A DNA stretch of 32,000 nucleotides from Candidatus Methylomirabilis limnetica (lineage in GTDB: Bacteria; Methylomirabilota; Methylomirabilia; Methylomirabilales; Methylomirabilaceae). Shown here piece after piece: positions 6,971-28,989 of the stretch (positions are counted from its first letter, which is position 1; each line of letters opens with the position of its first letter). Position numbers and translations under genes: made by a program. The stretch spans positions 6,669 to 38,668 of the forward strand of contig NZ_NVQC01000038.1 of the NCBI RefSeq assembly GCF_003044035.1, read 5' to 3'. A model generated the notes under the pieces. The model had not been told where the DNA came from. It did no database searches and worked only from the letters and a program-made list of their open reading frames with translations.

Positions 6971-7295
6971 TTCTCGGTGCTGGTCTTTTGATGGAGAACA
7001 TTGGAGTCGGATATCAGCGTGTCCATTGGATTAAGAAGTAAAGTTGTACCAAGAATAACCAGTAGTCAGACCGCATGGTACTGAGTCTGGGCGACGCCGG
7101 AAATGTACAGTATGTCCACAACCACCACGAATCTCCTCATGTTGGCTTCCAGACGGTACGATCGACCTCTTGCCCTTGACCCCTTACACGGAAAACGAAC
7201 TGTCCTGTCGTGAGTATGTAACAAGGTCTCGCTGAGATCGGCTATTTTTGACCTGCTCATTTAATTCTCACATCCGGCTAACAGCCGTTTAACCC

Positions 7296-8344: not shown

Positions 8345-8983
8345 TTACGCCTCGATCAGGATGTCATAATACGGGACGTTAAGAAGATAGCTCTCATCTG
8401 CACGTTGAGCGAGAAACATTTCCCTTCGGGCCAGCCAGTTCAGAGAGCAAACGAATAGCCCCGGTAGACAATTAGCCATACGGATGAAAATAGTGGATAG
8501 CTTGGAATTTTGCCTACTGCGAATTCGCCGTACAGTTTTGACACGAAAGTCTTTCGACAGCTCGGGAATATAATCGGACTCCATGCTCGCTCGGGCCACG
8601 CTTCCTGAGGAACGACCAGAGAGGCTGGCCTGTTCGATGAGAATCTGACGTCCGCTTAGCACGAGAACGCGACGTATTTCGGACACAATTCGTGGGAAAT
8701 CTGAACCTCCCACGAGGTATTGCATGACCCAACATGATAGGCACGTATCAAAAACCACATCCGGACCAGCGAGAACTAGATCCAAGGAGTCGGCACACCT
8801 TACCGAAGGATGCTCGGCCCAGAGCTGCTGTCGCCGCTCTGGGCTCGATTCACAAATCCAGGAAAGGACGCCAAGGTCGGCGAAGTTTCGAACCAGGTTT
8901 TTTCCCTAGTAGCCAGCGCCGATACAGGCGATCACGGCCTTAGGCGGTGATTTCTCGCGTCCATCGCAGTTATCATTGGGCAT
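8345..8983 (-). pseudogene. Rossmann-fold, class I SAM-methyltransferase-like gene interrupted by an in-frame TAG
   Basis: Hand translation from ATG 8983 gives MPNDNCDGREKSPPKAVIACIGAGY*GKNLVRNFADLGVLSWICESSPERRQQLWAEHPSVRCADSLDLVLAGPDVVFDTCLSCWVMQYLVGGSDFPRIVSEIRRVLVLSGRQILIEQ... The TAG (8908-8906) falls inside the Gly-rich nucleotide-binding loop. The downstream part is track ORF 8345..8785. The first ~60 aa could also be read as a Gfo/Idh/MocA-type N-terminus. Confidence 0.5.
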
Positions 8984-8990
8984 CCAGTGT

Positions 8991-9350
8991 CTCCCCTCAC
9001 CCCCCCATCCTCACCTTCCCCCTCGTAGGGGGGAAGGGACAAATCCACCCACAGCTTCGACCTCTTTCCCCCTTAAAGGGAGATCACACTTTAGACCTCC
9101 TCCCCCCTTGAACGGGCCCACAACTGAATAAAGGCTCATGGTATGAAACTGTGGGTTACAGTTTCGACCTCCTCTTACCCCCCCATCCTCACCTTCCCCC
9201 TCGTGGGGGGGAAGGGAAGTGCGGTGGTACCTTCACCCGGTGGGGGGAAGGGATAAATCACCCACAGTTTCGACCTCTTTCCCCCTTGAAGGGAGATCAC
9301 ACTTTAAGCCTCCTCCCCCCTTGAGGGGGAGGATTGAGGTGGGGGGGAGA
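8991..9350. repeat. mosaic GC-rich multi-hairpin repeat cluster, two tandem composite copies
   Basis: 'ccccccatcctcaccttccccctcgtRggggggaaggga' occurs at 9001 and 9179. 'cacagYttcgacctctttcccccttRaagggagatcacactttaRRcctcctccccccttga' occurs at 9050 and 9263. The second copy also carries 'agtgcggtggtaccttcacccggtggggggaaggga' and 'gggggaggattgaggtgggggg'. Confidence 0.85.
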
Positions 9351-9383
9351 GCCGAATAAAATAACACCATACGATGCGTAACT

Positions 9384-12254
9384 TCAGGCGCTCCGCCTTA
9401 ATATCGCTGCAATCCTGGCCTGAAGTTCATCCAATCGGAACGGCTTTGTGATGTAATCATCTGCGCCGGCCCTGAGTCCGGTGACGACATCGTCTTTGTC
9501 GCCGTATCCTGTCATCATGATAATTGGGATGTTTCGATACTGGGGGTGGTCACGCAACGCCTGGCACACCTGGAGACCATTTTGGTCCGGCAGCTTTACA
9601 TCGAGAAGGATGAGATGGGGGCGCTGACGCTGGATTCGATCGAATCCGTCGCGGGCGCTACAGGCTGTTGCCACCTCATACGTACCGTTCACGGCCTCTT
9701 TCACCAAATCGCAGAGGGTCTTATCATCATCAATGACCAGGATGCGATACTTTTCACCAACCTCAGGAACCGAGAATGCAGACTCCTTGAGAGAAGGAGC
9801 ATAACTCGGGATCATGTCATGTATCTGTCGCAGAAGGGCGGGCACGTCGCCAACCATCGCCAGAGTTTCGAGGCGGTTAAGACGCTCCTCCATATCCCCG
9901 AAGGAGGCCTGCGGCTGCCGCACCGCGAAGATCCGGTCATATTCTGACACCAGAACTTCGTCGTCGTCCCAAAGGCTCTCGTGCAACTTCTCCCCTGGGC
10001 GCAATCCTGTGTATCGCTTTGTGACTCGCGATGGGTTCAGACCTGACGTCAGGGCGAGGTTATTCACCAGTTCGTCGATCTTGACCGGCTCTCCCATGTT
10101 CAGGATAAACACGTCCTCCTCGCAGTCCATCGTACTGCTCTGCAACACCAGTCCAACCGCTTCGGGTATCGTCATGAAGAAGCGTGTCATCTGTGGGTCT
10201 GTGATAGTAATGGGCTCTCCATTCTCGATCTGCTTCTGGAAGAGGGGCACCACACTTCCGGCGCTGCCGAGCACGTTACCAAATCTCACGACAAAGAAAT
10301 GAGGCGTCCCGCTTAACCCGTGTGACTGTCGGAGGACTCGATTGAGGGCTATAATGTACATCTCGCTCACCTTCTTCGTCGCCCCCATCAAGCTTTTCGG
10401 CCTCACGGCCTTATCGGTTGAGATGAAGACGAAGGTGTTTACGTCAAACTTCTGCGCAACTTCAGCCAGACGTTTCGTCCCGATGATATTGTTGAGAACC
10501 GCCTCTCCCGGATGGTCCTCCAGGATCGGCACGTGTTTATAGGCTGCGGCGTGGAACACAACCTGCGGCCTCGTGCGTTCGAATATCTCCGACATGCGTG
10601 GAATATGCTTGATGTCCGCAAGGGCTGCCGTTACGTTGGCCTCGGGGGAATGTTGTCGGATCTCCAATGAGATGTGGTGCAGGGCATTCTCGGCGCGTTC
10701 GACCATGATGAGCGATTCAACACCACAACTGATAAGTTGCCGACATAGTTCTGAACCAATGGATCCCCCCGCTCCGGTCACCATGACCCGCTTTCCGCGG
10801 AAAAACTCGGTAATCGCCTCTCGGTTGATGGCCACCGGTTCTCGCCCAAGCAATTCATCAACGTTCACCTTTCGAAGATACCGCAGGTTTCCATCCCCCC
10901 GCACGAGCTGGGTAAAAGACGGGAGGGTCTTGAATTCCAGACCAGCCCCGGCGCAGATGCTGCCGATGCGGCGTAGCCCGTTACCAGTCGCGGTCGAAAT
11001 CGCGATGATCGCTTCCTGAATCGCATACGTCTTCGCGATGTCAGGAAGCCTGTCGATTGTGCCGAGCACAGGCCGGCCATGAATGGTCGCCCCCTGCTTT
11101 TTGGGATCGTCGTCGACGAATCCGATGAGTCCGTAACCCGACAACGGATTGCCAAGGATTTCCCTTGCGATCAATTCACCGGTTTCCCCTGCCCCGATAA
11201 TGACAACCTTGCGGCTATTGGTTGGGGATGTGTCACTACTCAGGTGTTTAGGCTGAAGGCTGAAGCTCGACCGCACGAGGAGCCGCATCCCTCCTGTAAG
11301 CAGGACCGTCAAAGGCATGGTCAATATGAGAATCGATCTCGGATAGCCATGCCATCCCATAAGGACCACGGCGAAACCGTGCAGACCTCCTCCTATAGCT
11401 GATGCCTTGATAATCTGCCACAGGTCCTCTACGCCTGCAAACTTCCAGATGCTCCTATGGGTCCGGAGCGTTACGAAGGATACGAGATAGGCCGCGCAGA
11501 CAATGGGAAGGCCGTAAAGGAGATGCTGCGTCTCCTTCTCAGGAAGTGCCCAATCAAACCTGACCATGAAAGCCGATAGGTTTGCCGCAATAACAGCGAG
11601 GCAGTCCAGCGTCAACCTCGCATATTTTTGTATGTGGGGGGGCGGATTCAGTGTTGTGAGGATCCTTTCCCCTATCGCTATAGGCGTTCGGATTACGTAC
11701 CAGAGATCACCGGCAAGCGAGCGCGTACGGACGTACTCTCGGTCGCTCTCGAGTTTCTCCTGCATGAACTGCTTGGTATAGTGTTCATAGACATCAACTC
11801 CAGGAGGAAACGTATCCGACTCACCTACCCAGGCAAGTTGCGTTGGACCAGTGATTCCCGGTTTGACTTCCAAGATCGCGCGTTGTTCTGGCGTGTACTG
11901 TTCAACTATTGCAGGAATCTCCGGACGAGGCCCGACAAGGCTCATGTCGCCTTTCAGGACATTGATGATCTGGGGGAGCTCGTCGATCTTCAGCAGCCTG
12001 AGCAATCTGCCCACCCGAGTGACACGCGGGTCGGCGTTCCCTGTCAGATGAGGGCCAACTTGGTCAGCATCGACAACCATAGATCTGAATTTCAGAATCC
12101 TGAAGGTCTTCCCGCGCCTCCCGACGCGCTCCTGAGCATAGAAGACTAAACCTGGGGAATCCAGCTTAATGGCGATGGCCACGAGGAGAAAGATGGGCAA
12201 CAGCAGCACAAGCGCCACCAGGGAGAATATGAGATCTATCGCCCGCTTCAGCAT
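9384..12254 (-). CDS. tri-domain fusion: PglC-type bacterial sugar (phosphoglycosyl) transferase + CapD/PglF-like NAD-dependent 4,6-dehydratase + CheY-like receiver
   Basis: 956-aa ORF with ATG 12254 preceded by GGAGAAGG.
- aa 1-200: LKRAIDLIFSLVALVLLLP...RILKFRSM...KIDELPQIINVLKGDMSLVGPRPE.
- aa ~205-330: hydrophobic CapD-type membrane segments.
- Rossmann motifs: 'VVIIGAGETG' and 'VMVTGAGGSIGSEL'.
- Dehydratase core: 'VFHAAAYKHVP', 'FVFISTDKAV'.
- aa 836-956: receiver with 'ILVIDDD', 'LILLDVKLPD', 'IIMMTG', 'ITKPF'. Confidence 0.9.
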   Translation of the reverse strand: MLKRAIDLIFSLVALVLLLPIFLLVAIAIKLDSPGLVFYAQERVGRRGKTFRILKFRSMVVDADQVGPHLTGNADPRVTRVGRLLRLLKIDELPQIINVLKGDMSLVGPRPEIPAIVEQYTPEQRAILEVKPGITGPTQLAWVGESDTFPPGVDVYEHYTKQFMQEKLESDREYVRTRSLAGDLWYVIRTPIAIGERILTTLNPPPHIQKYARLTLDCLAVIAANLSAFMVRFDWALPEKETQHLLYGLPIVCAAYLVSFVTLRTHRSIWKFAGVEDLWQIIKASAIGGGLHGFAVVLMGWHGYPRSILILTMPLTVLLTGGMRLLVRSSFSLQPKHLSSDTSPTNSRKVVIIGAGETGELIAREILGNPLSGYGLIGFVDDDPKKQGATIHGRPVLGTIDRLPDIAKTYAIQEAIIAISTATGNGLRRIGSICAGAGLEFKTLPSFTQLVRGDGNLRYLRKVNVDELLGREPVAINREAITEFFRGKRVMVTGAGGSIGSELCRQLISCGVESLIMVERAENALHHISLEIRQHSPEANVTAALADIKHIPRMSEIFERTRPQVVFHAAAYKHVPILEDHPGEAVLNNIIGTKRLAEVAQKFDVNTFVFISTDKAVRPKSLMGATKKVSEMYIIALNRVLRQSHGLSGTPHFFVVRFGNVLGSAGSVVPLFQKQIENGEPITITDPQMTRFFMTIPEAVGLVLQSSTMDCEEDVFILNMGEPVKIDELVNNLALTSGLNPSRVTKRYTGLRPGEKLHESLWDDDEVLVSEYDRIFAVRQPQASFGDMEERLNRLETLAMVGDVPALLRQIHDMIPSYAPSLKESAFSVPEVGEKYRILVIDDDKTLCDLVKEAVNGTYEVATACSARDGFDRIQRQRPHLILLDVKLPDQNGLQVCQALRDHPQYRNIPIIMMTGYGDKDDVVTGLRAGADDYITKPFRLDELQARIAAILRRSA

Positions 12255-12274
12255 CGCCTTCTCCGGCTCAACCC

Positions 12275-12555
12275 TTTACCCCCCATCCTCACCTTCCCCC
12301 TCAAGGGGGGAAGGGATTTCTGAGGGATGGAGAGCCCACTGCCGCCTCCGCCTTCCGCTAACAAGAGTGGCCCGCAAGGGGGGAAGGGACACCCATTTCG
12401 GAATCCTCCCCCCTTGTGGGGGGGGTAATGCCTCTACTCGCAGGGGAGAACTCCAGACCTCCCGACAGACGGGCGGGGATAAACCCCGCCCCTACACCCC
12501 CCATCCTATCCTTCCCCCGCCAGGGGGGAAGGGAAGTGCGGCGGGACCTGTCCGG
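12275..12555. repeat. mosaic GC-rich multi-hairpin repeat cluster
   Basis: Contains 'ccccccatcctcaccttccccctcaaggggggaaggga', 'cctccccccttgtgggggggg', 'gggcggggataaaccccgcccctacaccccccatcctatccttcccccgccaggggggaagggaagtgcggcggg'. These are the same modules as at 9.0, 15.2, 15.6, 16.1, 17.0 and 18.9 kb. Confidence 0.85.
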
Positions 12556-12640
12556 ATAATGACAAAGCCCACCTGCCGCAATGGAGCGTAGCGGAATAGC
12601 GATCAGGTGCAGCACCTTGTTAGGCAAAGATTTCATCAAC

Positions 12641-12841
12641 TTATACGGTCTCAAATTGCAAACTCTTTAGCATTTGCACTGGGACGCGCTTGCTTAAGCC
12701 CAGTATCTCAACCCCGACTACGTTGTCATTTGCATCATAGTCGAGAATTACGCCTGGTTTAACCTCCTCGGACTCGACAATGGCTGACTCATCGAGCCGA
12801 AAATATAACGCGTCATTCTTGTGATCCACCTTTAATCTCAT
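12641..12841 (-). CDS. DUF2283-family small protein (putative antitoxin partner of DUF4258)
   Basis: 66 aa: MRLKVDHKNDALYFRLDES...GVILDYDANDNVVGVEILGLS, the typical DUF2283 pattern. Its start overlaps the upstream stop as ATGA (12838-12841). Confidence 0.8.
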   Translation of the reverse strand: MRLKVDHKNDALYFRLDESAIVESEEVKPGVILDYDANDNVVGVEILGLSKRVPVQMLKSLQFETV

Positions 12842-13086
12842 TGCGGCCTCCTTACTCTACGGTCAAAGAAGACAGTGACGATTCTCTGAGGCCGGGCATC
12901 CGGATTCACAACAACCCGTAAATATCGTCCACCGTGCTGCTCAATAGATCGAATATAGTGAAGCATTCCATCATCCTTTGGTTGCTTCTTCTCGGGATCT
13001 TCTAAAGCCAACTCTACCCAAGCTTCTTGAATGTTCCGCTCCCTTAGCATATCATAAGCATGTTCAGAGAACTCATACTCGATCAT
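12838..13086 (-). CDS. DUF4258-family small protein (putative toxin)
   Basis: 82 aa: EFSEHAYDMLRERNIQEAWVELALEDP...GRYLRVVVNPDARPQRIVTVFFDRR. This is the DUF4258 pattern (H-A-x-x-M-L-x-x-R-x-I ... LRVVV ... IVTV). Confidence 0.8.
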   Translation of the reverse strand: MIEYEFSEHAYDMLRERNIQEAWVELALEDPEKKQPKDDGMLHYIRSIEQHGGRYLRVVVNPDARPQRIVTVFFDRRVRRPQ

Positions 13087-13114
13087 GCCTGCCTATGTGC
13101 CGCAGGCGCCGGAC

Positions 13115-13178
13115 CTCCATCCCCCCCACCCAGAGGGTACCCGGGAGAAGGGATAGGAGAGGGAGAGCCTTCCCTCCA
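13115..13178. repeat. degenerate member of the GC-rich repeat family
   Basis: 'catcccccccacccagagggtacccgggagaagggataggagagggagagccttccctcc' resembles the 18700-18750 copy ('cccccccacccgtcccctccccctcggaggggggagggtaagagggagag'). Confidence 0.4.
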
Positions 13179-13277
13179 TCGGCACCGTTCGGTCACATCG
13201 TGAGGCGTGAGGAGGAGCCCCTTATGCCTTCCGATTGAAGAACCACGTAACTTGCTCATCCTCGCTTTCACTCTCCG

Positions 13278-13589
13278 CTATGTCGTAAGGCGGCTAGACC
13301 TGTGATTGAGCCATTTCTTGAAAGAGGCCTGACTTTCGCCTGAGGGTTTCCCAGCCAATAGACCCTCAACGCTCACATCCTCATCGATGTCTTCCCAGTG
13401 GATACCCTGCCCCTCACCAATCAGCCTCCAGTGACTTCGTTCTTGTTGGGTCGCATGCACAAGGCGAGGGAACCACGCAAGTGGGACTGAGATCGTCCGC
13501 CCGTCGCTCAAATCCACGCTCAGCGTATCGTCGGTTACCGTAATGCTTTCAGCATTTGGAACCTCAATCTCAACTGCCGAAGTAGTCAT
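13278..13589 (-). CDS. DUF2442-family small protein
   Basis: MTTSAVEIEVPNAESITVTDDTLSVDLSDGRTISVPLAWFPRLVHATQQERSHWRLIGEGQGIHWEDIDEDVSVEGLL is the typical DUF2442 pattern. ATG 13589 is preferred over 13622 because GGAGG lies 8 nt upstream. It overlaps the upstream gene by 20 nt. Confidence 0.8.
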   Translation of the reverse strand: MTTSAVEIEVPNAESITVTDDTLSVDLSDGRTISVPLAWFPRLVHATQQERSHWRLIGEGQGIHWEDIDEDVSVEGLLAGKPSGESQASFKKWLNHRSSRLTT

Positions 13590-13806
13590 TCCACGCCTCC
13601 ATGAATCTTGGGTCATGCTCATTCACGAGTTGCTGAATTCGACCGATTTCTGCTCGAGTAAATCTACCACTCTTTTGTAGCCGTATCGGATCCAGCCAGA
13701 ACTTTGCAATTTTGCTGTTCCGTTCCACATGAATGTGCGGCGGTTCATCTCGATCGCCGGCGTAGAAGAAGAACCGATACGGGCCAACTTTCAGTACCGT
13801 CGGCAT
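13570..13806 (-). CDS. DUF4160-family small protein
   Basis: 78 aa: MPTVLKVGPYRFFFYAGDRDEPPHIHVERNSKIAKFWLDP is the typical DUF4160 N-terminus. The ATG lies 5 nt after the DegT stop. Confidence 0.8.
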   Translation of the reverse strand: MPTVLKVGPYRFFFYAGDRDEPPHIHVERNSKIAKFWLDPIRLQKSGRFTRAEIGRIQQLVNEHDPRFMEAWNDYFGS

Positions 13807-13811
13807 GAGCC

Positions 13812-15005
13812 CTATCTCCGAAGGGTGTGGAGTGTGTCGTGTACGGACTCGATCACTCGCCCTATGTCGGCATTCGTCATCGCCGGATAGATTGGGAGCG
13901 AGACCGCACGCTCGAAGATATGTTCGGCGTTCGGAAACGCTCCCTGATGGTAGCCAAATGACCGCTGATAGACGGGGTGCAGATGAAGGGGAATGAAGTG
14001 AACGGAGGTCCCAATGCCCTTCTCTCCAAGGGAGCGAATGACCTCGTCTCGCCCACTAGCCAAGGCGGGAAGATTGAGTTGTAAGATGTACAGGTGCCAG
14101 GCGTGTGTGCCGTAGTCGGCCTCTTGAGGGATCACGCACGTCTCCAGACCTGAGAAGCTCTCGCTATACATCCGAGCAATCTCTCGCCGTCGCTTGTAAA
14201 AGTCATCCGACCTTCTGAGTTGCTGGATTCCCAACGCCGCAGCCAGATCGGTCAGGTTGTATTTAAATCCGAAATCGAGGATCTCGTAATACCAGTGTCC
14301 CTTATCGGAGTACCGGTTCCAGGCATCACCACTCAGACCATGGAGGCTCATCCGCTTCATTCTGGCGGCATGGTCGTCGCGCATCGTCGCGATCATCCCG
14401 CCCTCTCCAGTGGTTATCGGCTTGGTGGCATAAAAGCTGAAGGCCGTGAGATCACCAATAGCCCCGATCATCTTTCCTTTGTAGGTGGCATGAAGGGCAT
14501 GAGCGGCATCCTCAATGACGTGAAGGTGATGCTCCCTGGCAAGTTCCATGATCGGATCCATGTCACATGCCTGCCCGGCGATGTGAACGGGGATGATGGC
14601 CTTGGTCTTCGGCGTGATCAGCGGTGCTACCGTAGCCGCATCAATATTGAAGGTGTCAGGCCGGCAGTCGGCCAGGACAGGACGAGCCCCGAGGTAAGTC
14701 ACCACTTCTCCGGTGGCGGCAAACGTATAGGTGGGGAGGATCACCTCGTCGCCTGCCCCGACGCCAACTGCATCGAGAGCCAGATGGAGCGCGGCGGTGC
14801 AGGAGTTGACGGCAATGGCATGCTTGGCGCCAACGTAGGCGGCAAAGGCCTCCTCGAATTGTCTGACCTTCGGACCAGTCGTCAGCCAGCCGGAGCGAAG
14901 CACTTCGACGACTTCGGCGATCTCTTCTTCGCCAATCGAGGGGAGATGGAAGGGAATCTTTTGTTGTTGTCCGTTCTGCATGTTGTTCACAGTAACAAGC
15001 GGCAT
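13812..15005 (-). CDS. DegT/DnrJ/EryC1/StrS-family PLP-dependent sugar aminotransferase (PglE-like)
   Basis: 397-aa ORF. 'LPSIGEEEIAEVVEVLRSGWLTTGPKVRQFEEAFAAYVGAKHAIAVNSCTAALHLAL', 'HVIEDAAHA' and the Lys motif 'FSFYATKPITTGEGGMI' are family hallmarks. Confidence 0.9.
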   Translation of the reverse strand: MPLVTVNNMQNGQQQKIPFHLPSIGEEEIAEVVEVLRSGWLTTGPKVRQFEEAFAAYVGAKHAIAVNSCTAALHLALDAVGVGAGDEVILPTYTFAATGEVVTYLGARPVLADCRPDTFNIDAATVAPLITPKTKAIIPVHIAGQACDMDPIMELAREHHLHVIEDAAHALHATYKGKMIGAIGDLTAFSFYATKPITTGEGGMIATMRDDHAARMKRMSLHGLSGDAWNRYSDKGHWYYEILDFGFKYNLTDLAAALGIQQLRRSDDFYKRRREIARMYSESFSGLETCVIPQEADYGTHAWHLYILQLNLPALASGRDEVIRSLGEKGIGTSVHFIPLHLHPVYQRSFGYHQGAFPNAEHIFERAVSLPIYPAMTNADIGRVIESVHDTLHTLRR

Positions 15006-15045
15006 TTGCTATCTCTTGCCATCCATCACGCTCTTCTTCTTCTTC

Positions 15046-15188
15046 CTAGTGTAGTATATCCAACGATTCTTTTCAATCCGTTCGCCCTGAGCCTGTCGAA
15101 GGGTGAAGTATTTCAATTGGTTCCGTTCATGGGTTCGACAAGCTCACCACGAACGGATTGTAAAGGTATTTGTGAGGCACTACACTAG
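15046..15188. repeat. 143-bp imperfect palindromic (inverted-duplication) element, MITE-like
   Basis: Perfect 10-bp termini: 'ctagtgtagt' (15046-15055) / 'actacactag' (15179-15188). Perfect 11-bp inner pair: 'caatccgttcg' (15074-15084) / 'cgaacggattg' (15150-15160). A 12/13 pair: 'tgagcctgtcgaa' (15088-15100) / 'ttcgacaagctca' (15134-15146). Confidence 0.55.
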
Positions 15189-15207
15189 AGTCTTGGGCTC
15201 ATGGCAC

Positions 15208-15317
15208 GTGGGATGGGCGGGGATAAACCCCGCCCCTACATCCCCCCCATCCTCACCTTCCCCCGCCAGGGGAGAAGGGAAGTGCGGCGGTACCTTCACC
15301 CGGTGGGGGGAGGGAAG
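15208..15317. repeat. canonical ~110-bp unit of the GC-rich multi-hairpin repeat
   Basis: 'gtgggatgggcggggataaaccccgcccctacatcccccccatcctcaccttcccccgccaggggagaagggaagtgcggcggtaccttcacccggtggggggaggga'. Confidence 0.9.
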
Positions 15318-15325
15318 TATGATTG

Positions 15326-15544
15326 TTAGCCCTTGATAACTTGCTCCTCTATCGGGACCTTGCTTATGAGGAGCTCTTTCATGTCTACTTTCTTGCTAGC
15401 ATTATCAATGTCGATACCCACGATATTCCCATCAACATCATAATCGAGGATCACTCCTTCCGATATCTCTTTGCTGTCAGCGCTGACCTTGCCCGACAAA
15501 TCTATGTAGAGAGAATCAGTGTCTGGATAGTAGTTCAACCTCAT
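15326..15544 (-). CDS. DUF2283-family small protein, orphan (no DUF4258 partner adjacent)
   Basis: 72 aa: MRLNYYPDTDSLYIDLSGKVSADSKEISEGVILDYDVDGNIVGIDIDNAS. Paralog of 12641..12841. Confidence 0.75.
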   Translation of the reverse strand: MRLNYYPDTDSLYIDLSGKVSADSKEISEGVILDYDVDGNIVGIDIDNASKKVDMKELLISKVPIEEQVIKG

Positions 15545-15566
15545 GGCTTATACCCCCGATGTCGCA

Positions 15567-15699
15567 GGGGAAGGCTTTACGCTCTCCCGTGGGATGGGCG
15601 GGGATAAACCCCGCCCCTACATCCCCTCATCCTGTCCTTCCCCCACAAGTAGGGAAGGGAGGTGCGGTGGTACCTTCACCCGGGGAGGGGAAGGGAAAG
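15567..15699. repeat. GC-rich multi-hairpin repeat unit
   Basis: 'ggggaaggctttacgctctcccgtgggatgggcggggataaaccccgcccctacatcccctcatcctgtccttcccccacaagtagggaagggaggtgcggtggtaccttcacccggggaggggaaggga'. Confidence 0.9.
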
Positions 15700-15756
15700 A
15701 ATCGCTTGCCCCGCCGTGCTCATTCCAGCTTGCGAGAGGAGTCCAGATACGAGCGG

Positions 15757-16056
15757 TTAGGCTCTCTTTGGCTTCGCTGTATGCTTTTTGGGGAGTAGTG
15801 GGATTAAACACCGCAAAGCCCTATTTACAGACTCTGAGTTTGGGAAATATGCTCGAGTATCCGGCTCTAGAACCACTATGCCCTCTTTAGGCATCACGTC
15901 CTTAACAACAGTTGTACCATCTGCCTTACGGATAGTCATCGTATACCCAGCTTGCATAGTCCTATAATGTTTACCACGCACTCCACACCTAAAATCATAT
16001 TCGGTACGCATATCGTTGTCTTCCACCTGTACCATTTTAGTCGCCACCTTCTTCAT
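15757..16056 (-). CDS. small conserved protein, antitoxin-like, orphan
   Basis: 99 aa, with ATG 16056. 'EYDFRCGVRGKHY' and 'VVLEPDTRAYFPNSESVNRALRCLIPLL' match a motif pair (EYDF..G.RGK.Y ... V.LDPDV...FPdSeSVNeALR) that I recall from small proteins next to toxin genes. I cannot name the family with certainty. Confidence 0.5.
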   Translation of the reverse strand: MKKVATKMVQVEDNDMRTEYDFRCGVRGKHYRTMQAGYTMTIRKADGTTVVKDVMPKEGIVVLEPDTRAYFPNSESVNRALRCLIPLLPKKHTAKPKRA

Positions 16057-16071
16057 AAAGTTCCCGCTCCG

Positions 16072-16221
16072 ATGAGGTGGAGGGTATACTGGGAAGGCTT
16101 ACGCTCTCCCGTGGGATGGGCGGGGATAAACCCCGCCCCCACATCCCCCCCATCCTCACCTTCCCCCGCCACGGGGGAAGGGAAGCGCGGTGGTACCTTC
16201 ACCAGGTGGTGGGAGAGAGGG
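16072..16221. repeat. GC-rich multi-hairpin repeat unit
   Basis: 'gaggtggagggtatactgggaaggcttacgctctcccgtgggatgggcggggataaaccccgcccccacatcccccccatcctcaccttcccccgccacgggggaagggaagcgcggtggtaccttcaccaggtggtggg'. Confidence 0.9.
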
Positions 16222-16294
16222 TCCGATGGCGTGTAGTGAGCGAAACAGACCGCAAACACACTGTTATCCGAAGTTGCCCGGCTTGTTCCTACGA

Positions 16295-16540
16295 TCAGGC
16301 AAAGGCTTTTGCCGGCATCTCAATGTAGCGATCTGGTTCTTCTACCTTACCATGAATGGCAAAGAACTGCCGCTCGATTTCCTTGAGAACAACCGCATCG
16401 TAGTAGACCATGCCACAATTCAGGCATACTTCAACAGGGGTATTCGGCACCAGCAAGTATTTCCCCTCGTGGCTATAGAGATACTCAATCCTTCGTTCCT
16501 CATGGCGGTCACTGCCGCAGAAATTACACTCTATTGCCAT
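16295..16540 (-). CDS. YgiT/MqsA-type zinc-finger small protein (putative antitoxin)
   Basis: MAIECNFCGSDRHEERRIEYLYSHEGKYLLVPNTPVEVCLNCGMVYYDAVVLKEIE has two CxxC pairs with YgiT-type spacing. ATG 16540 overlaps the upstream TAG stop by 10 nt (aTGGCAATAG). Confidence 0.75.
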   Translation of the reverse strand: MAIECNFCGSDRHEERRIEYLYSHEGKYLLVPNTPVEVCLNCGMVYYDAVVLKEIERQFFAIHGKVEEPDRYIEMPAKAFA

Positions 16541-16848
16541 CCTCGTCTTTCTCCTCGCGTCCAAGGGTCAATGAACTTCGGCGGGCGTGGAATGTATACG
16601 GTGATAAGTACTACCTTTTCCCCACGCCAGCCGCATACGACGTGAATAGGTATCTTCCCAGCAAAACCTACGACCAGACAACTCTCACCGCGTCCAATAT
16701 CAGGATACTGCTCAAGGATCTTACTATTCAATAGAGCCTCTTCTACTTGAGCGAAGGTTAATCCGTCCGCTCTCCGCTCAATCTCGGCATGATGGCTGTA
16801 AACATACCTGTTGTCGCGAACCCTCGCCTTTATCTCTTCAATGTCCAT
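16531..16848 (-). CDS. DUF4258-family small protein (putative toxin), second paralog
   Basis: 105 aa: YVYSHHAEIERRADGLTFAQVEEALLNSKILEQYPDIGRGESCLVVGFAGKIPIHVVCGWRGEKVVLITVYIP. Confidence 0.8.
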   Translation of the reverse strand: MDIEEIKARVRDNRYVYSHHAEIERRADGLTFAQVEEALLNSKILEQYPDIGRGESCLVVGFAGKIPIHVVCGWRGEKVVLITVYIPRPPKFIDPWTRGERRGWQ

Positions 16849-16900
16849 CTCTGCTCATAACGATACCCACTACTACTGACGGCTCCCACGTCATGCGTCG

Positions 16901-17192
16901 CTCCTCCTCCCCCCATCCCAGCCTTCCGCCGCCAAGGGGGAAGGGAAGTGCGGTGGTGCCTTCACCTGGTGGGGGGAAGGGATGCCCATGGTGGATTTTT
17001 CCCCCTCACGCCTGACGCCCATCTCCCTTCCGAGGGGAGGATTCCCTCTCCGACCTCCTCCCCCCTTGTGGGGGAGGATTGAGGTGGGGGGTATACTGGG
17101 AAGGCTTACGCTCTCCCGTGGGATGGGCGGGGATAAACCCCGCCCCTACATCCCCCCCATCCTCACCTTCCCCCGCCAGAGGGGAAGGGATC
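16901..17192. repeat. mosaic GC-rich multi-hairpin repeat cluster (about two and a half units)
   Basis: Contains 'ccccccatcccagccttccgccgccaagggggaagggaagtgcggtggtgccttcacctggtggggggaaggga', 'cctcctccccccttgtgggggaggattgaggtggggggtatactgggaaggcttacgctctcccgtgggatgggcggggataaaccccgcccctacatcccccccatcctcaccttcccccgccagaggggaaggga'. Confidence 0.9.
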
Positions 17193-17202
17193 GGCATCAC
17201 AG

Positions 17203-18483
17203 TCAGTGGATCTTCTTGAGGGACACCTGGTCGATCCAGGCGGTTCCGCCGATGAGATTATCGAGTTTCTGGCTGGTCTCTCGCCGGATCTTGATGACAA
17301 TGGCCTGAGATCGCGGAGAGGTTTCAAACGGTACGCGCACCTCGGACCACGGGTGGTCGCCGATGTAGCTCTCGCTCGTGGCATGGCGTCTGCCATCGAG
17401 AAAATCTATTACCTCCAGATAGGGGCCGTTTGAGGTCGTGATGCCTGTGGTCTTGATGGAACCGCTCAGTAGGTAGCGAGTCCCCGGCATCACCGGAACC
17501 ACCTGAGAGGCAGCGGTCAGATCTAGATTTCGAGTGCCATCAAAGGCGATCTTGAGCGATCGCGTCCCCTCCGCGGAGCTCGACGCACCAACCCCAATCT
17601 CTACCCCAGCGCTCCGTCCAACCCGCCAATCGAATCCGGCCCCCCACGTCTCGTCTCGCTCGAACCCGCCATTCCACATTAGATTGTCAAGGTCACCGCC
17701 TCCCCTGCCAATCCCCCGTAATCGCAACAGCAGGTTCCAGGCAGACGTAGCCTCTGACAGGTCCTTGTGTTCAAGCATGAAATCGACATACGCTGAAGCG
17801 AGGCGGGGATCCACGCTGACAGCAGGGAGAGCGGTAAGCCGCTGCCACACCACCCTTCCGTTCTCAGCCTCCCCCTGCCTGATCAGGTAGTCCAGGTAGT
17901 CCGACAAGACCCCCGGCTCGGCGGGTAAGGTCGTGTCGATGAAATCGGCGGGCTGCATGAGGGTGTGGATAAGGGTGAAATAGGTCTGGCGCTGGCTTGG
18001 CTCGGTCATCACCAGATGTCGCAGGTTGGCGATGGCGGCCTCGTAGTCCTCAAGCTGGATCTGAAACAGTGCGGCCTCCCAACGCAGCCTCGCATTGCTA
18101 GGATTGAACCACAACGCAAGCCTGAGGGCGGGCTTGGCCTCCTGGACCTGACCTAACCACCAGTGGGTCCTCGCCACATCGAACCACGTGCGGCTGGAAA
18201 GGGGATTCTCCCAAAGGGCCAGTCGATAGTGACGCAACGCCTCCTGATAGTCCTGGAAGCTCACGCTGTATTGGCGAATCTTTCCCAGGTGCTGATGCTG
18301 GTACTGGGGGTGTTCTGGATGCGACCGCCAGGCACGGAGCAGTTCAGGGTCGTGGGGAAGAGCGGGGATCGCGAAGCTGGCCGCCCAGGGACGGACGATC
18401 ATCCAGGAGGCCAAGGTGGTAAGGCAGGCGAGCAGTAGGAGGGAAGCGGCCTTGCTTGACGACGTCCTGAACTCGAGGACCAT
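17203..18483 (-). CDS. membrane-anchored TPR-repeat protein with a C-terminal carbohydrate-binding-module-like (CBM4/9-type) domain
   Basis: 426 aa with an N-terminal hydrophobic anchor (AASLLLLACLTTLASWMIV). TPR-like helices: YQEALRHYRLALWENPLSSRTWFDVARTHWWLGQVQEAKPALRLALWFNPSNARLRWEAALFQIQLEDYEAAI. The C-terminus, 'WNGGFE...W...GTRSLKI...QVVPVMPGTRYLLSGSIKT', resembles a CBM_4_9 fold. Confidence 0.65.
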   Translation of the reverse strand: MVLEFRTSSSKAASLLLLACLTTLASWMIVRPWAASFAIPALPHDPELLRAWRSHPEHPQYQHQHLGKIRQYSVSFQDYQEALRHYRLALWENPLSSRTWFDVARTHWWLGQVQEAKPALRLALWFNPSNARLRWEAALFQIQLEDYEAAIANLRHLVMTEPSQRQTYFTLIHTLMQPADFIDTTLPAEPGVLSDYLDYLIRQGEAENGRVVWQRLTALPAVSVDPRLASAYVDFMLEHKDLSEATSAWNLLLRLRGIGRGGGDLDNLMWNGGFERDETWGAGFDWRVGRSAGVEIGVGASSSAEGTRSLKIAFDGTRNLDLTAASQVVPVMPGTRYLLSGSIKTTGITTSNGPYLEVIDFLDGRRHATSESYIGDHPWSEVRVPFETSPRSQAIVIKIRRETSQKLDNLIGGTAWIDQVSLKKIH

Positions 18484-18548
18484 GCGATCTCATCTCCCAT
18501 CCTAAAACTAGCGCGGGAAAACTATTCCATAGTCATTTTGTTGAGGGT

Positions 18549-18645
18549 CGATACCCCGCGGCTTGCCGCGAGTTCGTCATACCGGCGGAAGCCGGTATCC
18601 AGAGGGCCGACTGGATTCCGTGTCAAGCACGGAATGACGGGCCAG
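18549..18645. repeat. ~95-bp two-hairpin repeat (second family), copy A
   Basis: 'cgataccccgcggcttgccgcgagttcgtcataccggcggaagccggtatccagagggccgactggattccgtgtcaagcacggaatgacgggccag' is near-identical to 28897-28989. Perfect hairpins: ataccggc-ggaa-gccggtat and attccgtg-tcaagc-acggaat. The head 'cgataccccgcRgcttgccgcg' recurs at 18655-18677. Confidence 0.85.
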
Positions 18646-18699
18646 AACAGAAGACGATACCCCGCAGCTTGCCGCGGGGCAGTTCATTGGTTTTAAGGT

Positions 18700-18775
18700 C
18701 CCCCCCACCCGTCCCCTCCCCCTCGGAGGGGGGAGGGTAAGAGGGAGAGTGCGGCCTTTCATGCCCATTGGCGAG
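18700..18775. repeat. GC-rich repeat, variant unit with the 'gggagagtgcggcctttcatgcccattggcg' tail
   Basis: 'cccccccacccgtcccctccccctcggaggggggagggtaagagggagagtgcggcctttcatgcccattggcgag'. The tail matches 18930-18962 at 28 of 33 positions. Confidence 0.7.
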
Positions 18776-18825
18776 TCAAGGCTCATGAGGTACTGCCCCG
18801 AAAGTCCCCCTCAACTACCTGATCC

Positions 18826-18960
18826 GTAGGGGCGGGGTTTATCCCCGCCCGGTAAGCGGGAGGGCATAAAGCCCTCCCCTACATCCCCCCATCCTATCCT
18901 TCCCCCGCAAGGGGGGAAGGGATATCGGCGGGAGAGTCCGGACTTTCATGCTCATGGGCG
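18826..18960. repeat. GC-rich multi-hairpin repeat, rearranged unit overlapping the 3' end of the Wzc-like gene
   Basis: Inverted copy of the ATAAA-loop hairpin ('gtaggggcggggtttatccccgccc', 18826-18850). A covariant direct copy follows ('gggagggcataaagccctcccctacatccccccatcctatccttcccccgcaaggggggaaggga', 18858-18921). Then the tail 'gggagagtccggactttcatgctcatgggcg'. Confidence 0.85.
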
Positions 18961-21293
18961 TGGGGGGCTCCTGGGGTATTGCTTCGATCATGGTGCCCCC
19001 TCGCGACGATACCGTGCCGTTCGGATTTCCGATGATAATAGTCGTGATAGTCCTGATAGTACGAATACCCGTGGCTATGCAGATCTATGTTGTTCAGGAC
19101 GACGCCCAAGATTTTCGCGTTGACTGCGTTGAGCGTTCTCACCGCTCTTTGAGCGGCATCTCGAACCGTTTTGCCTGCACGGATAACAAACACGGTGCCC
19201 TCGGCGAATGTGGATAGCAGGACGCTATCGGTAAACCCAAGCACCGGCGGCGCATCGATAATCACATACTTGAACTGCTGACAGAGCAGTTCCAAGGCAT
19301 CCCTCATCCGCTCGGAGCCAAGTAACTCTGCCGGGTTCAGTGGGGATTGTCCCGCCGGCAGTAGAGAGAGGTTGGAGGTTGCCGTTGGTTTGATGACGGC
19401 GCTAAGCTCTGCGTCTCCCACAAGGAAGTTCGACAGCCCTGGCGTTCGATCCTGCCCCAGGATCCGGTGACAATCGGGATAGCGCATATCCGCATCGATG
19501 AGCAGAACGTCACCGCCAAGTTGCGACAGCGCGACAGAGAGATTGATCGACACGCCTGTTTTACCGTCGCCCGGTTCCGCACTGGTCACGAGGAGCAGCT
19601 TAGGAGGGTTCTCCGGGAGAGAGAAGAGGAGCGAGGTCCGGATGTTCCGGATGGCCTCACCAACCAACGAGGACTGATCCTGGAGCATGACCAGTTCAAA
19701 CGACTTCGCGTCCTGGCCGTTGTTGGTCGTTCCTTTCAGCCGCCTCCTTCGTTCGACGGAGGCTAATGCCGGCACGGCCCCCAGAATCGGCAATGCGAAC
19801 GTCGATTCTACCTCTTCGATCTTATTGACAGTGTTGTCAAGGTAGTCGGAGAAGAACGCCAGGCCGATCCCCAGGCCGAGACCGAGGACGATCCCGAGCG
19901 TCAGGTTGAGCAGTTTCTTAGGGCGATCGGGCCAGAGCGGAATTTTCGCCAGGTCAGTGATCATAATATTCGTGGAATCGAGTCCCGCAGAGACAGCCGT
20001 CTCTTTCATGCGCTGCAACAGGCCGGAATACAGTTCGCGGTTGATGTCAACCTCTCGCTTCAGGATGTTGTACTGAATGGAATCCTCGTTGGTCTTGAGG
20101 GTCACCGTTTTCTGCTTATCCACCGCTGATTGGAGCAGATGTTCCGATTTCAGGCCTGCCTCATAACTCGACCGGAGGCCATCGACAACCCTTTGGACCT
20201 CACCATCAAGCTTTATCTTCACTTCGTCGATATTACTCTTCAGCGCCACCATCCTGGGATAGTCCGACAGGAACGTCTCAGACAGCTTCCTGTATTCGGC
20301 CTGAAGGCGGAAATACTCTGTCTTCAAGCTAGAGATCAGCGGATTTTCCAACACCGATGGGATCGACTGAAAATCCTGTCCCTGAGTCTGCCGATGCAGC
20401 GCCTCCTTCGCCAGCCGCTCGCTGCGCGCTTTCATCAGGGCATCAGTGAGCAGTGAGAGCTGCTTGGTGGTCTGTTCCTGTTTTTCATCTAGCACGAGGT
20501 ATTGCTTCTGCTTGGCAAATCGCTGAAGCAGTTCATCAGAGCTCTCGAGCTTGATCCTCACCTCTTGAATCTGTTTCGCCAGGAAGTCGCCGGCATATTT
20601 CATCGCGCCCAGCCTCTGCTCGATGCTCTGTTCGATAAAGTTCTCTGCCATCGCGTTGGCAATTTGGGCGGACAGTTCCGGCGAGGGGCTGAGGAAGGCG
20701 ATCTTCACCAGGCGGGTATTCTTGACGGGTTCAATCTCCAGCTTTTTCAGGAAACTCTGCACCACGGGCGATTCGGTGATTGACGCCTCGCCGGAAGCCT
20801 GCTGCGTAGACGGCTGAGGGCGTATGAGGTCCACAAGATTGGTGAGCCAAGTCCATGTTGGAGAGGCCGGACCTTGCATTCCAGAGCCCAAGAATTCCGG
20901 GTTTGCGTCGAGGTTGAAGCGTTTGACGACCCGCTCCGCAAGCGAATAGCTTGTCAGCAGCTTGTATTGCGTCTGATAATAATCATCGGTCTCTTTGTTG
21001 GCAGACGGCGAGACGTCATCGAACTTCAGGATCTTGAGTTCTGCCCTGTCGATCTTGATGGTGGCGGTGGCCTTATACACCGGCCGCTGAACAAACGTCG
21101 CAGTGGCAACGGTAACCACCGTGACAAGAAAACAGGTGAGGACGATCCAGCGATGCTTGAGGAGCACCTGCCAGTAATCCCTGAGATGCGGATCTTTCTT
21201 TTGCTCGGGAAACGCCTGGACAGGCCATAGCTGAGGCTTCGCCAAGCCTCCGCTGCCCCCCTTCACCTTTACGAGCGCATTATCGGGGTCCAT
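18894..21293 (-). CDS. wzc: Wzc/GumC-type polysaccharide co-polymerase fused to a BY-kinase (tyrosine autokinase) domain
   Basis: 799 aa. N-terminal TM plus Wzz-like region (HLRDYWQVLLKHRWIVLTCFLVTVVTV...YKATATIKIDR). Long coiled periplasmic part. Second TM (LNLTLGIVLGLGLGIGLAFF). P-loop 'TSAEPGDGKTGVSINLS', 'VLLIDADMRYP', 'YVIIDAPPVL'. Tyr cluster 'HGYSYYQDYHDYYH'. Confidence 0.9.
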   Translation of the reverse strand: MDPDNALVKVKGGSGGLAKPQLWPVQAFPEQKKDPHLRDYWQVLLKHRWIVLTCFLVTVVTVATATFVQRPVYKATATIKIDRAELKILKFDDVSPSANKETDDYYQTQYKLLTSYSLAERVVKRFNLDANPEFLGSGMQGPASPTWTWLTNLVDLIRPQPSTQQASGEASITESPVVQSFLKKLEIEPVKNTRLVKIAFLSPSPELSAQIANAMAENFIEQSIEQRLGAMKYAGDFLAKQIQEVRIKLESSDELLQRFAKQKQYLVLDEKQEQTTKQLSLLTDALMKARSERLAKEALHRQTQGQDFQSIPSVLENPLISSLKTEYFRLQAEYRKLSETFLSDYPRMVALKSNIDEVKIKLDGEVQRVVDGLRSSYEAGLKSEHLLQSAVDKQKTVTLKTNEDSIQYNILKREVDINRELYSGLLQRMKETAVSAGLDSTNIMITDLAKIPLWPDRPKKLLNLTLGIVLGLGLGIGLAFFSDYLDNTVNKIEEVESTFALPILGAVPALASVERRRRLKGTTNNGQDAKSFELVMLQDQSSLVGEAIRNIRTSLLFSLPENPPKLLLVTSAEPGDGKTGVSINLSVALSQLGGDVLLIDADMRYPDCHRILGQDRTPGLSNFLVGDAELSAVIKPTATSNLSLLPAGQSPLNPAELLGSERMRDALELLCQQFKYVIIDAPPVLGFTDSVLLSTFAEGTVFVIRAGKTVRDAAQRAVRTLNAVNAKILGVVLNNIDLHSHGYSYYQDYHDYYHRKSERHGIVARGHHDRSNTPGAPHAHEHESPDSPADIPSPLAGEG

Positions 21294-21312
21294 CTATCTC
21301 TATCCTTGACTG

Positions 21313-21387
21313 AGAAAATCTCCCCTCGCCCCTCTTTTCCAAAGAGGGGTAAATCCTCCCTTTGGCAAAGGGAGGTGAGGAGGGATT
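21313..21387. repeat. 75-bp two-hairpin element (third family), copy A, in the wza-wzc intergenic gap
   Basis: 'agaaaatctcccctcgcccctcttttccaaagaggggtaaatcctccctttggcaaagggaggtgaggagggatt'. It matches 22471-22545 at 71 of 75 positions. Hairpins: cccctcttt-tcc-aaagagggg and cctcccttt-ggc-aaagggagg. Confidence 0.9.
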
Positions 21388-21392
21388 GTTCA

Positions 21393-22484: not shown

Positions 22485-22545
22485 CGCCCCTCTTTTCCAA
22501 AGAGAGGTACATCCTCCCTTTGGCAAAGGGAGGTCAGGAGGGATT
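22471..22545. repeat. 75-bp two-hairpin element (third family), copy B, overlapping the wza start
   Basis: 'agaaaatctcccatcgcccctcttttccaaagagaggtacatcctccctttggcaaagggaggtcaggagggatt'. Confidence 0.9.
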
Positions 22546-22727
22546 CTTCGATACGGTAAAGTCACTATTTTTAGATAGTTAATCGCTGTTTCCCTATCCG
22601 ATCCTATCCTCTGTTTTAACATCTCTCGGTCTTTCGTCTTCTCCTGTTTTCCACAGTACACAGGAGGGCATCGATCGCGTAAATCCCCTCTCCCATCAGA
22701 ACAAGACGGAGCGGTGTAGGCTATTGC

Positions 22728-28896: not shown

Positions 28897-28989
28897 TCCC
28901 CGGCTTGCCGCGAGTTCGTCATACCGGCGGAAGCCGGTATCCAACAGGCCCCGGCTGGATTCCGTGTCAAGCACGGAATGACGGGCCAG
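28897..28989. repeat. ~95-bp two-hairpin repeat (second family), copy B
   Basis: 'tccccggcttgccgcgagttcgtcataccggcggaagccggtatccaacaggccccggctggattccgtgtcaagcacggaatgacgggccag'. Confidence 0.85.

Follow-up and report, generated by a model that had tools for sequence, protein, structure and literature searches.

GTAG-tagged repetitive extragenic palindromes (REPs) reportedly occur together with REP-associated tyrosine transposases (RAYTs) of the Y1/HUH type and in the form of REP doublets forming hairpins (REPINs; Nunvar 2010; Bertels & Rainey 2011). Di Nocera et al. (2013, PMC3733652) describe GTAG REP families with sub-families of complementary stems, head-to-head and tail-to-tail (HH/TT) dimers and REPtrons, in which REPs flank a RAYT gene, along with REPs inserted in other palindromes (GTAG-15, GTAG-23) and mosaic intergenic regions. 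Here we analyse a 32,000-nt stretch of Candidatus Methylomirabilis limnetica (contig NZ_NVQC01000038.1, positions 6,669 to 38,668, called the window throughout), in which the gaps of an exopolysaccharide cluster carry many structured repeats. The repeat cluster is genuine and of the known REP/REPIN/BIME kind (BIME, bacterial interspersed mosaic element), and its modularity is apparent, stemming from the nesting of unrelated families. Our preferred reading, which we consider probable, is that the gaps are filled with composite clusters of selfish, non-coding palindromes of this type, drawn from at least two unrelated, nested families and marking the joints of gene cassettes.

Module positions were mapped with blastn-short. 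Every one of the eight gaps that exceed 100 nt between 8786 and 18893 contains at least one module, the rest of the 32 kb contains none, and all modules lie on the plus strand with the sole exception of 18826-18850. The 17-mer of module A (CATCCTCACCTTCCCCC) has nine matches with up to three mismatches against 0.12 expected; the preliminary description of this DNA counted at least eleven such copies, and the 49-nt repeat family around the 17-mer does have 11 members, one of them merely A/D-like. The module B hairpin (GGGCGGGGATAAACCCCGCCC) is present in five exact plus-strand copies and one inverted copy at 18830-18850 (0 expected), and the stem variant GGGAGGGC-ATAAA-GCCCTCCC at 18858-18878 brings the total to the seven hairpins first reported. 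The flank 'ctacatccc' said to follow them is exact in four of the seven: the copy at 12471 has 'ctacacccc', that at 16118 'ccacatccc', and the inverted copy a different flank. Five copies of the module C 30-mer (AGTGCGGYGGTACC...) are full-length and the sixth, counted earlier as a copy, is a stump at 12535-12545. Module D ('cctcctcccccc...') has two full copies (9309-9346, 17054-17091) and two truncated ones, module E ('tatactggg...') two identical copies and one variant. Since two independent assemblies (L001 and L002; comparison sequences bear L numbers) are 99.995-100 % identical over the region, an assembly artefact is ruled out. The repeats are arranged as follows:

9001-9346, plus strand: gap I, cluster 3' of the 956-aa gene; A 9001-9039, F 9041-9093, truncated D 9096-9111, A 9179-9217, C 9218-9253, F 9259-9306, D 9309-9346.
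12279-12545, plus strand: gap II, cluster; A 12279-12316, remnant of an A 3' arm 12378-12389, deleted D 12404-12423, decayed partner REP at about 12438-12470, GTAG-REP B 12471-12495, A 12497-12534, truncated C 12535-12545.
13125-13160, plus strand: gap III, degenerate A unit.
15184-15316, plus strand: gap IV, unit of strongly decayed partner REP 15184-15214, B 15215-15239, A 15243-15280 and C 15281-15316.
15563-15696, plus strand: gap V, unit of E 15563-15595 (partner REP with tag GCAG and stem GGGAAGGC/GCTCTCCC), B 15596-15620, A 15623-15660 and C 15661-15696.
16085-16214, plus strand: gap VI, unit of E 16085-16117, B 16118-16142 (tag CCAC), A 16146-16183 and C 16184-16214.
16909-17190, plus strand: gap VII, A 16909-16946 and C 16947-16982, then the full nested composite 17054-17190, which folds as a single long hairpin; D 17054-17091, E 17092-17124, B 17125-17149, A 17153-17190.
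18826-18922, plus strand: gap VIII, flipped head-to-head GTAG-REP dimer (GTAG-GGGCGGGG-TTTAT-CCCCGCCC at 18826-18850, 7-nt spacer, GGGAGGGC-ATAAA-GCCCTCCC-CTAC at 18858-18882), then A 18885-18922, which overlaps the final codons of the Wzz-kinase open reading frame (ORF).
18700-18740, plus strand: divergent A/D-type hairpin CCCCTCCCCC-tcgga-GGGGGGAGGG, found in repeat families D1 and D5.

At the position of gap II the relative L204 has an intact D and extra units, and at that of gap III both L204 and L256 have an intact A. In seven gaps the modules are colinear and follow one fixed order, D-E-B-A-C-F-D, with truncations. REP clusters with recurring linker motifs in extragenic space are what defines a BIME, and together with the anatomy of the GTAG-REP described below they bear out the earlier view of these repeats as REP/BIME-like structured extragenic elements.

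The reverse complement of module B reads GTAG-GGGCGGGG-TTTAT-CCCCGCCC, a palindrome with an unpaired terminal GTAG tag that the window holds as six exact hairpins and one stem variant. What was first seen as an 'ATAAA hairpin' is a GTAG-tagged REP, composed of GTAG, an 8-bp G/C stem and a TTTAT loop. When the upstream sequences of all B copies are aligned, module E ('tatactgggaaggcttacgctctcccgtgggat') emerges as a decayed REP of the GGGAGGGC sub-type, inverted and at a constant 7 nt from B in gaps II and IV-VII; the best-preserved E, in gap V, is GCAG-GGGAAGGC-TTTAC-GCTCTCCC. As an inverted partner REP at fixed 7-nt spacing, E forms with B a head-to-head REP dimer, that is, a REPIN, and two inverted REPs with a short spacer (7 nt) are likewise found at 18826-18882. 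The latter pair is a flipped version of the E+B hetero-dimer, still attached to module A through CTAC followed by ATCCCCCC. The hairpin at 18858-18878, initially taken for a compensated copy of the same unit, is therefore the other arm of a hetero-dimer, of a second arm subtype (GGGAGGGC), and not a mutated copy. A matching hetero-dimer is carried by a metagenome-assembled genome (MAG) labelled Nitrospirales (L109). Across the window copies the B arm is invariant beside a varied and decayed E arm, which suggests that B is under constraint or is being homogenised. All B copies at this locus are tied to module A.

Maintenance of the hairpin structure had been proposed on the strength of that single variant, and it is borne out on other grounds. 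Anchor-free sampling by tag and loop pattern alone (GTAG-N8-TTTAY-N8) in 870 kb of B-anchored loci returned 74 copies besides the anchor sequence, against about 12 expected from shuffle. Stems are fully paired in 53 of the 74 and keep seven of eight pairs in 11 more, with at least ten distinct, fully compensated stems, GGGAGGGC/GCCCTCCC among them. In an alignment of 75 anchor-free copies from other genomes with the window's variant copy, all eight stem pairs are changed on both sides, and doubly changed cells number 31, where shuffles yield 8.6 ± 2.5. At 0.364, the covariation score lies well above both controls (0.139 shuffled, at most 0.16 with slid partners) and was matched in none of 500 shuffles, so that it is the structure of the B hairpin, and not merely its sequence, that is maintained.

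The family reaches far beyond this genome. An exact 25-mer of module B occurs in at least 120 genome stretches of a species-representative genome collection, including isolates of Rheinheimera, Desulfacinum infernum, Actinobacillus indolicus and Glaesserella, and MAGs labelled Desulfobacterales, Desulfarculus, Thermoanaerobaculia, Planctomycetota, Verrucomicrobia, Nitrospirales, Anaerolinea and Bipolaricaulis. Elsewhere the copies are mostly inverted pairs 20-25 nt apart with unrelated flanks. Phage carriage of either unit is negligible: four of 2.9 million viral contigs contain B and none contains A.

A link between module B and a transposase is found in Rheinheimera. Three Y1_Tnp genes (PF01797) of Rheinheimera sp. 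YQF-1 (L017) are each directly flanked by a B-type REP, and R. soli contributes one more (Rheinheimera records L017, L008). HUH and catalytic Tyr motifs are present in these genes, and their homologues, a very large family, are named 'REP element-mobilizing transposase RayT'. REPs thus flank a RAYT as in a REPtron, an arrangement that speaks for the family and not for the Methylomirabilis genome. Over all ORFs of 1.8 Mb, phmmer and a hidden Markov model built from 17 RAYT homologues recovered the Rheinheimera genes only; no Methylomirabilis-named homologue appears among the best 120 of 5199 protein matches, and RAYT homologues of Thermodesulforhabdaceae and Bipolaricaulota (L261, L262) show no B hairpin in their flanks.

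Two side observations concern the RAYT genes themselves. RAYT genes are normally single-copy, which makes the three near-identical tandem genes of Rheinheimera sp. YQF-1 (L017 4800-8000), set in REP arrays of two stem types (GGGCGGGG, GGGCGACC), unusual. Also, RAYT-family genes contain GTAG palindromes that are read in frame and lie directly behind the HUH motif (L261 616-640; L262 1777-1804; proteins P0046-P0209), for instance GTAGGGGCGACGCATGCGTCGCCCCTAC (peptide 'VGATHASPLP') and GTAGGGGCACGGCATGCCGTGCCCC ('VGARHAVPP'). A VG[AEV] peptide lies within 45 residues of PNHxH in 77 of 156 family members, at least five of these having it in a conserved ..VVGAFKS.. framework rather than an insert, and some members carry several such peptides, among them the 'VGAGFKPA(L/P)T' type, the counterpart of a B-like hairpin.

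The second family is made of modules A and D, which are one unit type in opposite orientations: the reverse complement of A is TCCCTTCCCCCC-N4-GGGGGAAGG-TGAGGATGGGGGG and D is CTCCTCCCCCC-TTGA-GGGGGAGGA-TTGAGGTGGGGGG. Each unit is a C-rich/G-rich 9-bp hairpin with a GGTGAGGATGGGGGG-type tail, and A and D together are an inverted doublet. Module C, from a reading of its sequence, looks like a 24-nt filler plus a second GGGGGGAAGGGA. Folding of the 137-nt D-E-B-A composite pairs D to A and leaves the B and E hairpins apical (-88 kcal/mol, z = -5). When sites are anchored by the tail alone, a stem of at least 8 bp is found in 191 of 242 (3 after shuffling), with just two main stems, CTTCCCCC/GGGGGAAG and CCTCCCCC/GGGGGAGG.

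The 22-mer head of A is present in at least 120 JGI metagenome contigs, typically with D upstream at a 14-nt spacer and tandem short CTTCCCCC-N-GGGGGGAAGGGA hairpins downstream; some of these contigs are Methylomirabilis limnetica-like and others encode proteins that cluster with those labelled Omnitrophica or Thermodesulfobacteriota, MAG labels being not fully reliable. Within 666 kb of A-anchored loci the GTAG-REP was found once, in the window's relative L204, and A/D units are almost absent from the 870 kb of B-anchored loci. Such non-overlapping distributions argue for two unrelated families whose junction is specific to this lineage, and the single modular family first envisaged has to be given up: elsewhere the GTAG hairpin is distributed separately from the C/G-rich hairpins of A and D, and only here are the two joined. 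Nor are the modules freely combined. The apparent mosaic is best explained by nesting, with the REP dimer (E+B) lying within the inverted D/A doublet, which accounts for the fixed order. The possibility, raised at the outset, of a miniature inverted-repeat transposable element (MITE) with terminal inverted repeats and target duplications is realised in part, as D resembles A in reverse complement and pairs with it along its length in the fold. No target-site duplication is visible flanking 17054-17190, no transposase for the A/D family was found in 120 A-anchored loci, and no parent insertion sequence (IS) was found.

As to the setting, the window's proteins share 90 %-identity clusters with those of Candidatus Methylomirabilis oxyfera, lanthanidiphila and tolerans and with 'NC10 bacterium' proteins. 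Its minus-strand genes are the exopolysaccharide cluster, among which small gene pairs typical of toxin-antitoxin modules are interspersed (DUF4258/DUF2283, DUF4160/DUF2442, DUF2283, DUF4258/YokU-MqsA-like and a 99-aa ORF):

Minus strand: exopolysaccharide cluster of glycosyltransferase, flippase, asparagine synthase-like protein, acetyltransferase, sugar-transferase/CapD/receiver fusion, DegT aminotransferase, TPR protein, Wzz-type tyrosine kinase and Poly_export.
12641-13086, minus strand: cassette of DUF2283 (12641-12841) and DUF4258 (12838-13086); absent from L236 and L250, present in L204 and L256, where it is flanked by A units.
13278-13806, minus strand: cassette of DUF2442 (13278-13622) and DUF4160 (13570-13806); absent from L204, L256 and L236.
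15326-15544, minus strand: cassette of DUF2283; in L260 it follows the TPR gene and a single unit.
15757-16056, minus strand: cassette of a 99-aa ORF with no Pfam hit; paired with an overlapping BrnT toxin gene in L259 (353-917).
16295-16848, minus strand: cassette of a YokU/MqsA-like zinc-finger protein (16295-16564) and DUF4258 (16531-16848); absent from L255 and L260.

The BrnT toxin gene that overlaps the 99-aa ORF in L259 is missing in the window, so that this ORF is probably a BrnA-like antitoxin, orphaned here. In L258 the DUF4258 gene of the cassette at 16295-16848 is joined internally to foreign AT-rich DNA.

On the TPR-DegT side, the window has four direct units separating three cassettes. 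In the compact relative L254, which lacks the repeats altogether, the genes for TPR, DegT and the transferase fusion overlap or are separated by 4 nt. A single B-A-C unit and an unrelated inverted repeat stand between TPR and DegT in L255, and L260 has TPR, one unit and the DUF2283 cassette; in L260 the cassette segment with its unit is 99.2 % identical to the window and the TPR gene just 91.4 %. In the DegT-transferase interval, L236 and L250-253 show a single A with a short hairpin, L256 carries DUF4258/DUF2283 between two A units, L204 has the same DUF4258/DUF2283 cassette with additional tandem units, and the window adds DUF4160/DUF2442. No modules were found in the M. oxyfera segment (L249), which spans the conserved part of the locus only. 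With 0, 1 or several cassettes at matching sites in relatives, the units are the joints of a hypervariable cassette array. A Logan contig from SRR6684602 (L003 2815-2830), 99.95 % identical over DegT, diverges exactly at the start of the decayed REP/B unit (15184) and continues into a resistance-nodulation-division (RND) efflux operon (OEP, MFP); either the locus differs structurally here or the contig was mis-joined at the repeat.

We propose a course of events that would lead to this arrangement. The GTAG-REP family is pan-bacterial, its B hairpin in single-stranded DNA (ssDNA) being the probable substrate of RAYT-type Y1/HUH transposases, which may have acted in this lineage as well. A REP dimer would have been inserted into the spacer of a D/A doublet, adjoining the A head, in this Methylomirabilis lineage, and the resulting unit of roughly 110-140 nt would then have been multiplied. 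Direct unit copies could serve as recombination joints at which toxin-antitoxin-like cassettes are gained, lost and exchanged among strains within an otherwise compact polysaccharide operon, either through homologous recombination between direct 110-140-nt repeats or through a site-specific or single-strand mechanism; the units may in this way cause cassette turnover and not merely accompany it.

Several points weigh against this reading. Neither the window nor the Methylomirabilis loci examined yielded a Y1/RAYT gene, and the A/D family is one for which neither a transposase, nor a target duplication, nor an empty/filled pair was found. B is always embedded in the composite in this lineage, and its copies may owe their spread to duplication or recombination, not to transposition; its perfect conservation within diverged units could also reflect a host function. 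For A/D, the covariation comes down to a single compensated pair that separates two sub-types, which is weak structural evidence. The cassette states, finally, rest partly on short metagenome and Logan contigs, in which repeats can give rise to mis-joins.

A host function could be sought in the transcript. The hairpins might primarily be cis-acting RNA elements of the polycistronic polysaccharide mRNA, acting under selection as 3'-exonuclease barriers, processing sites or partial terminators, a proposal that we consider unlikely even though an effect of the hairpins on the operon mRNA may exist. The window units are intercistronic and co-oriented with the genes, their hairpins are very stable by fold computation, B is perfectly conserved inside diverged units, and stabilisation of upstream mRNA by REPs is established in E. 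coli (reviewed in PMC3733652). However, the uniform orientation emphasised in the preliminary description holds in the window, save for 18826-18850, and not as a rule: no preference relative to genes was seen at 240 other loci in either family with crude longest-ORF gene calls, a test that is weak evidence because many elements lie 'inside' spurious longest-ORF calls. The modules show no T-run terminator signature; 8700-19100 holds three terminator-like sites, fewer than in shuffles, and none of them in modules. Rfam 15 gave no match at gathering score, with sub-threshold chance matches only, and G·T and A·C mismatches are without clear strand bias. The compact relative L254, moreover, has the same operon without any units.

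The cassette array itself invites another interpretation, in which the units are attC-like sites of dedicated cassette capture, either integron-like or with ssDNA mobilised between direct hairpins by a RAYT/IS200-type enzyme. In such a case the composite REP units would be attachment sites of an integrase-free system, where toxin-antitoxin-type cassettes bearing one unit each would leave and enter the array by excision and integration, perhaps as ssDNA circles processed by a Y1 enzyme of RAYT type with specificity for the strictly conserved GTAG hairpin, and domesticated REP/RAYT systems would have an integron-like role in gene shuffling. We hold this to be quite improbable. In its favour, n cassettes lie between n+1 direct units of uniform orientation with a unit at each cassette's 3' end, relatives have 0, 1 or 3 cassettes at the corresponding site, and duplicated A units enclose the L256 cassette, L236 and L250 having a single A at their empty site. 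A cassette 99 % identical adjoins a core gene just 91 % identical, and toxin-antitoxin genes with small DUF proteins recall the established content of chromosomal integrons. Against it, neither the window nor the relatives' loci contain an integrase or Y1 gene, RYYYAAC/GTTRRRY cores are not visible in the units, the DUF2442/DUF4160 pair adjoins DegT without a unit, and ordinary homologous recombination between 110-140-nt direct repeats yields the same states.

That the units are a small regulatory RNA family, as had been suggested, or short peptide-coding ORFs is hardly credible: the recurrent peptides (e.g. ...PSPLAGEGEDGGDVGAGFIPAHPTGERKPSQYT) from ORFs at 16053-16259 and 17006-17200 are a trivial consequence of DNA identity, there is no Pfam hit, no Rfam match and no pairing of promoter and terminator, and copies elsewhere stand in both orientations and varied contexts. 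Among other candidates, CRISPR was rejected for lack of spacers of adequate length, intrinsic terminators for lack of a hairpin with T-run in the modules, integron attC sites for lack of cores in the units and of IntI among the window ORFs, and coding repeats on the Pfam negatives.

Further repeats share the locus with the REP composites. A third family of about 150 nt (18549-18690, 28898-28989, L204 1461-1612) has hairpins CATACCGGCGGAAGCCGGTATCCAG and GGATTCCGTGTCAAGCACGGAATGACG between GATACCCCGCGGCTTGCCGCG-type ends; one copy sits inside the DUF4258 gene of L204, for which 13031-13045 in the window is the empty site, and this filled/empty pair indicates a mobile, MITE-like element. A fourth family is an 84-nt double hairpin (CCCCTCTTTTCCAAAGAGGGG...CTCCCTTTGGCAAAGGGAG...GGAGGGATTGTTC) at 21308-21391 and 22466-22549, its copies 92 % identical and flanking the Poly_export gene; it recurs 5' of DUF4258 in L256 (~2200-2305) and L204 (~1666-1715), with no copy there in the window. 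An unrelated inverted pair, CCGTTCGCCCTGAGCCTGTCGAAGGGTGAA ... TTCGACAAGCTCACCACGAACGG, at 15078-15165 upstream of DegT is found also in L255 and L003, and presumably resembles repeats of many environmental genomes.

Gene structure varies around the array too. The sugar transferase, CapD-like dehydratase and receiver domain form one 956-aa ORF (9384-12254) in the window and in L254, and two genes (333 + 598 aa) in the relatives L250-253 (L250 11325-14189). In L236 about 800 nt (6244-7038) take the place of the 3.2-kb segment 22436-25603, which encodes two response regulators and a 439-aa protein without Pfam hit; M. oxyfera (L249) retains these genes. A fragment of a Mutator-family transposase (PF00872, partial) lies at the cluster's left end (1676-2764), which is locally G+C-rich (0.60-0.64). 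The Wzz/tyrosine-kinase ORF 18894-21293 extends into module A (18894-18925), so that its last residues (...SPLAGEG) are repeat-encoded, and its C-terminus differs among relatives. For annotation this is a caution: ORFs that run through these units are spurious, the last Wzz-kinase codons included.

Literature searches for the exact B, A and D sequences returned nothing relevant, and no paper linking Methylomirabilis with REPs was found in the literature searched. The locus extends REP/REPIN-type elements to the NC10 phylum of nitrite-dependent methane oxidisers. Three features seem to us worth attention, namely the identity of the GTAG-REP across phyla, its strict conservation inside decaying units and the cassette array that the units delimit. 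Identity of the 25-mer across phyla fits poorly with a view of REPIN-RAYT systems as solely vertically inherited. Nested palindromes at the joints of strain-variable toxin-antitoxin cassettes within a biosynthetic operon provide a concrete, comparable case in which it becomes testable whether local gene turnover is organised by REP clusters.

Compared with known systems, the composite resembles Streptococcus pneumoniae BOX elements and MITEs as a modular, boxA-B-C-like set of hairpins with inverted termini (D and A), and differs from them in having neither a target duplication nor a parent IS that was found, in its host phylum and in the lack of any sequence relation. With chromosomal integrons and clusters of attC sites lacking integrases (CALINs) it shares small, co-oriented, strain-variable cassettes rich in toxin-antitoxin-like genes, each followed by a structured repeat of about 100 nt; unlike them, it has no IntI among the window ORFs and no attC cores, its repeats are REP-type composites and the array lies inside a biosynthetic operon. 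Like the BIMEs of E. coli and the mosaic intergenic regions of Neisseria (REP/Correia/dRS3), the modules are clusters of palindromic units with recurring linkers in the intercistronic gaps of an operon, whereas their order here is fixed, as a result of nesting, and variable genes lie between the units, which are direct repeats. The closest likeness is to GTAG REPs and REPINs: module B has the GTAG tag, a short G/C stem, a small loop and complementary stem sub-types, is intergenic, forms head-to-head dimers with a short spacer and flanks a RAYT in Rheinheimera. We class it at the level of GTAG REPs as a kind, which comprises 24 numbered families in PMC3733652. It differs in that its exact 25-mer spans many phyla, in a RAYT linkage known from Rheinheimera and not from this genome, and in a dimer that joins two arm sub-types, one of them decaying, within a larger composite. 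In that embedding it is again like GTAG-15 and GTAG-23 as described in that source, since B is inserted inside another palindrome.

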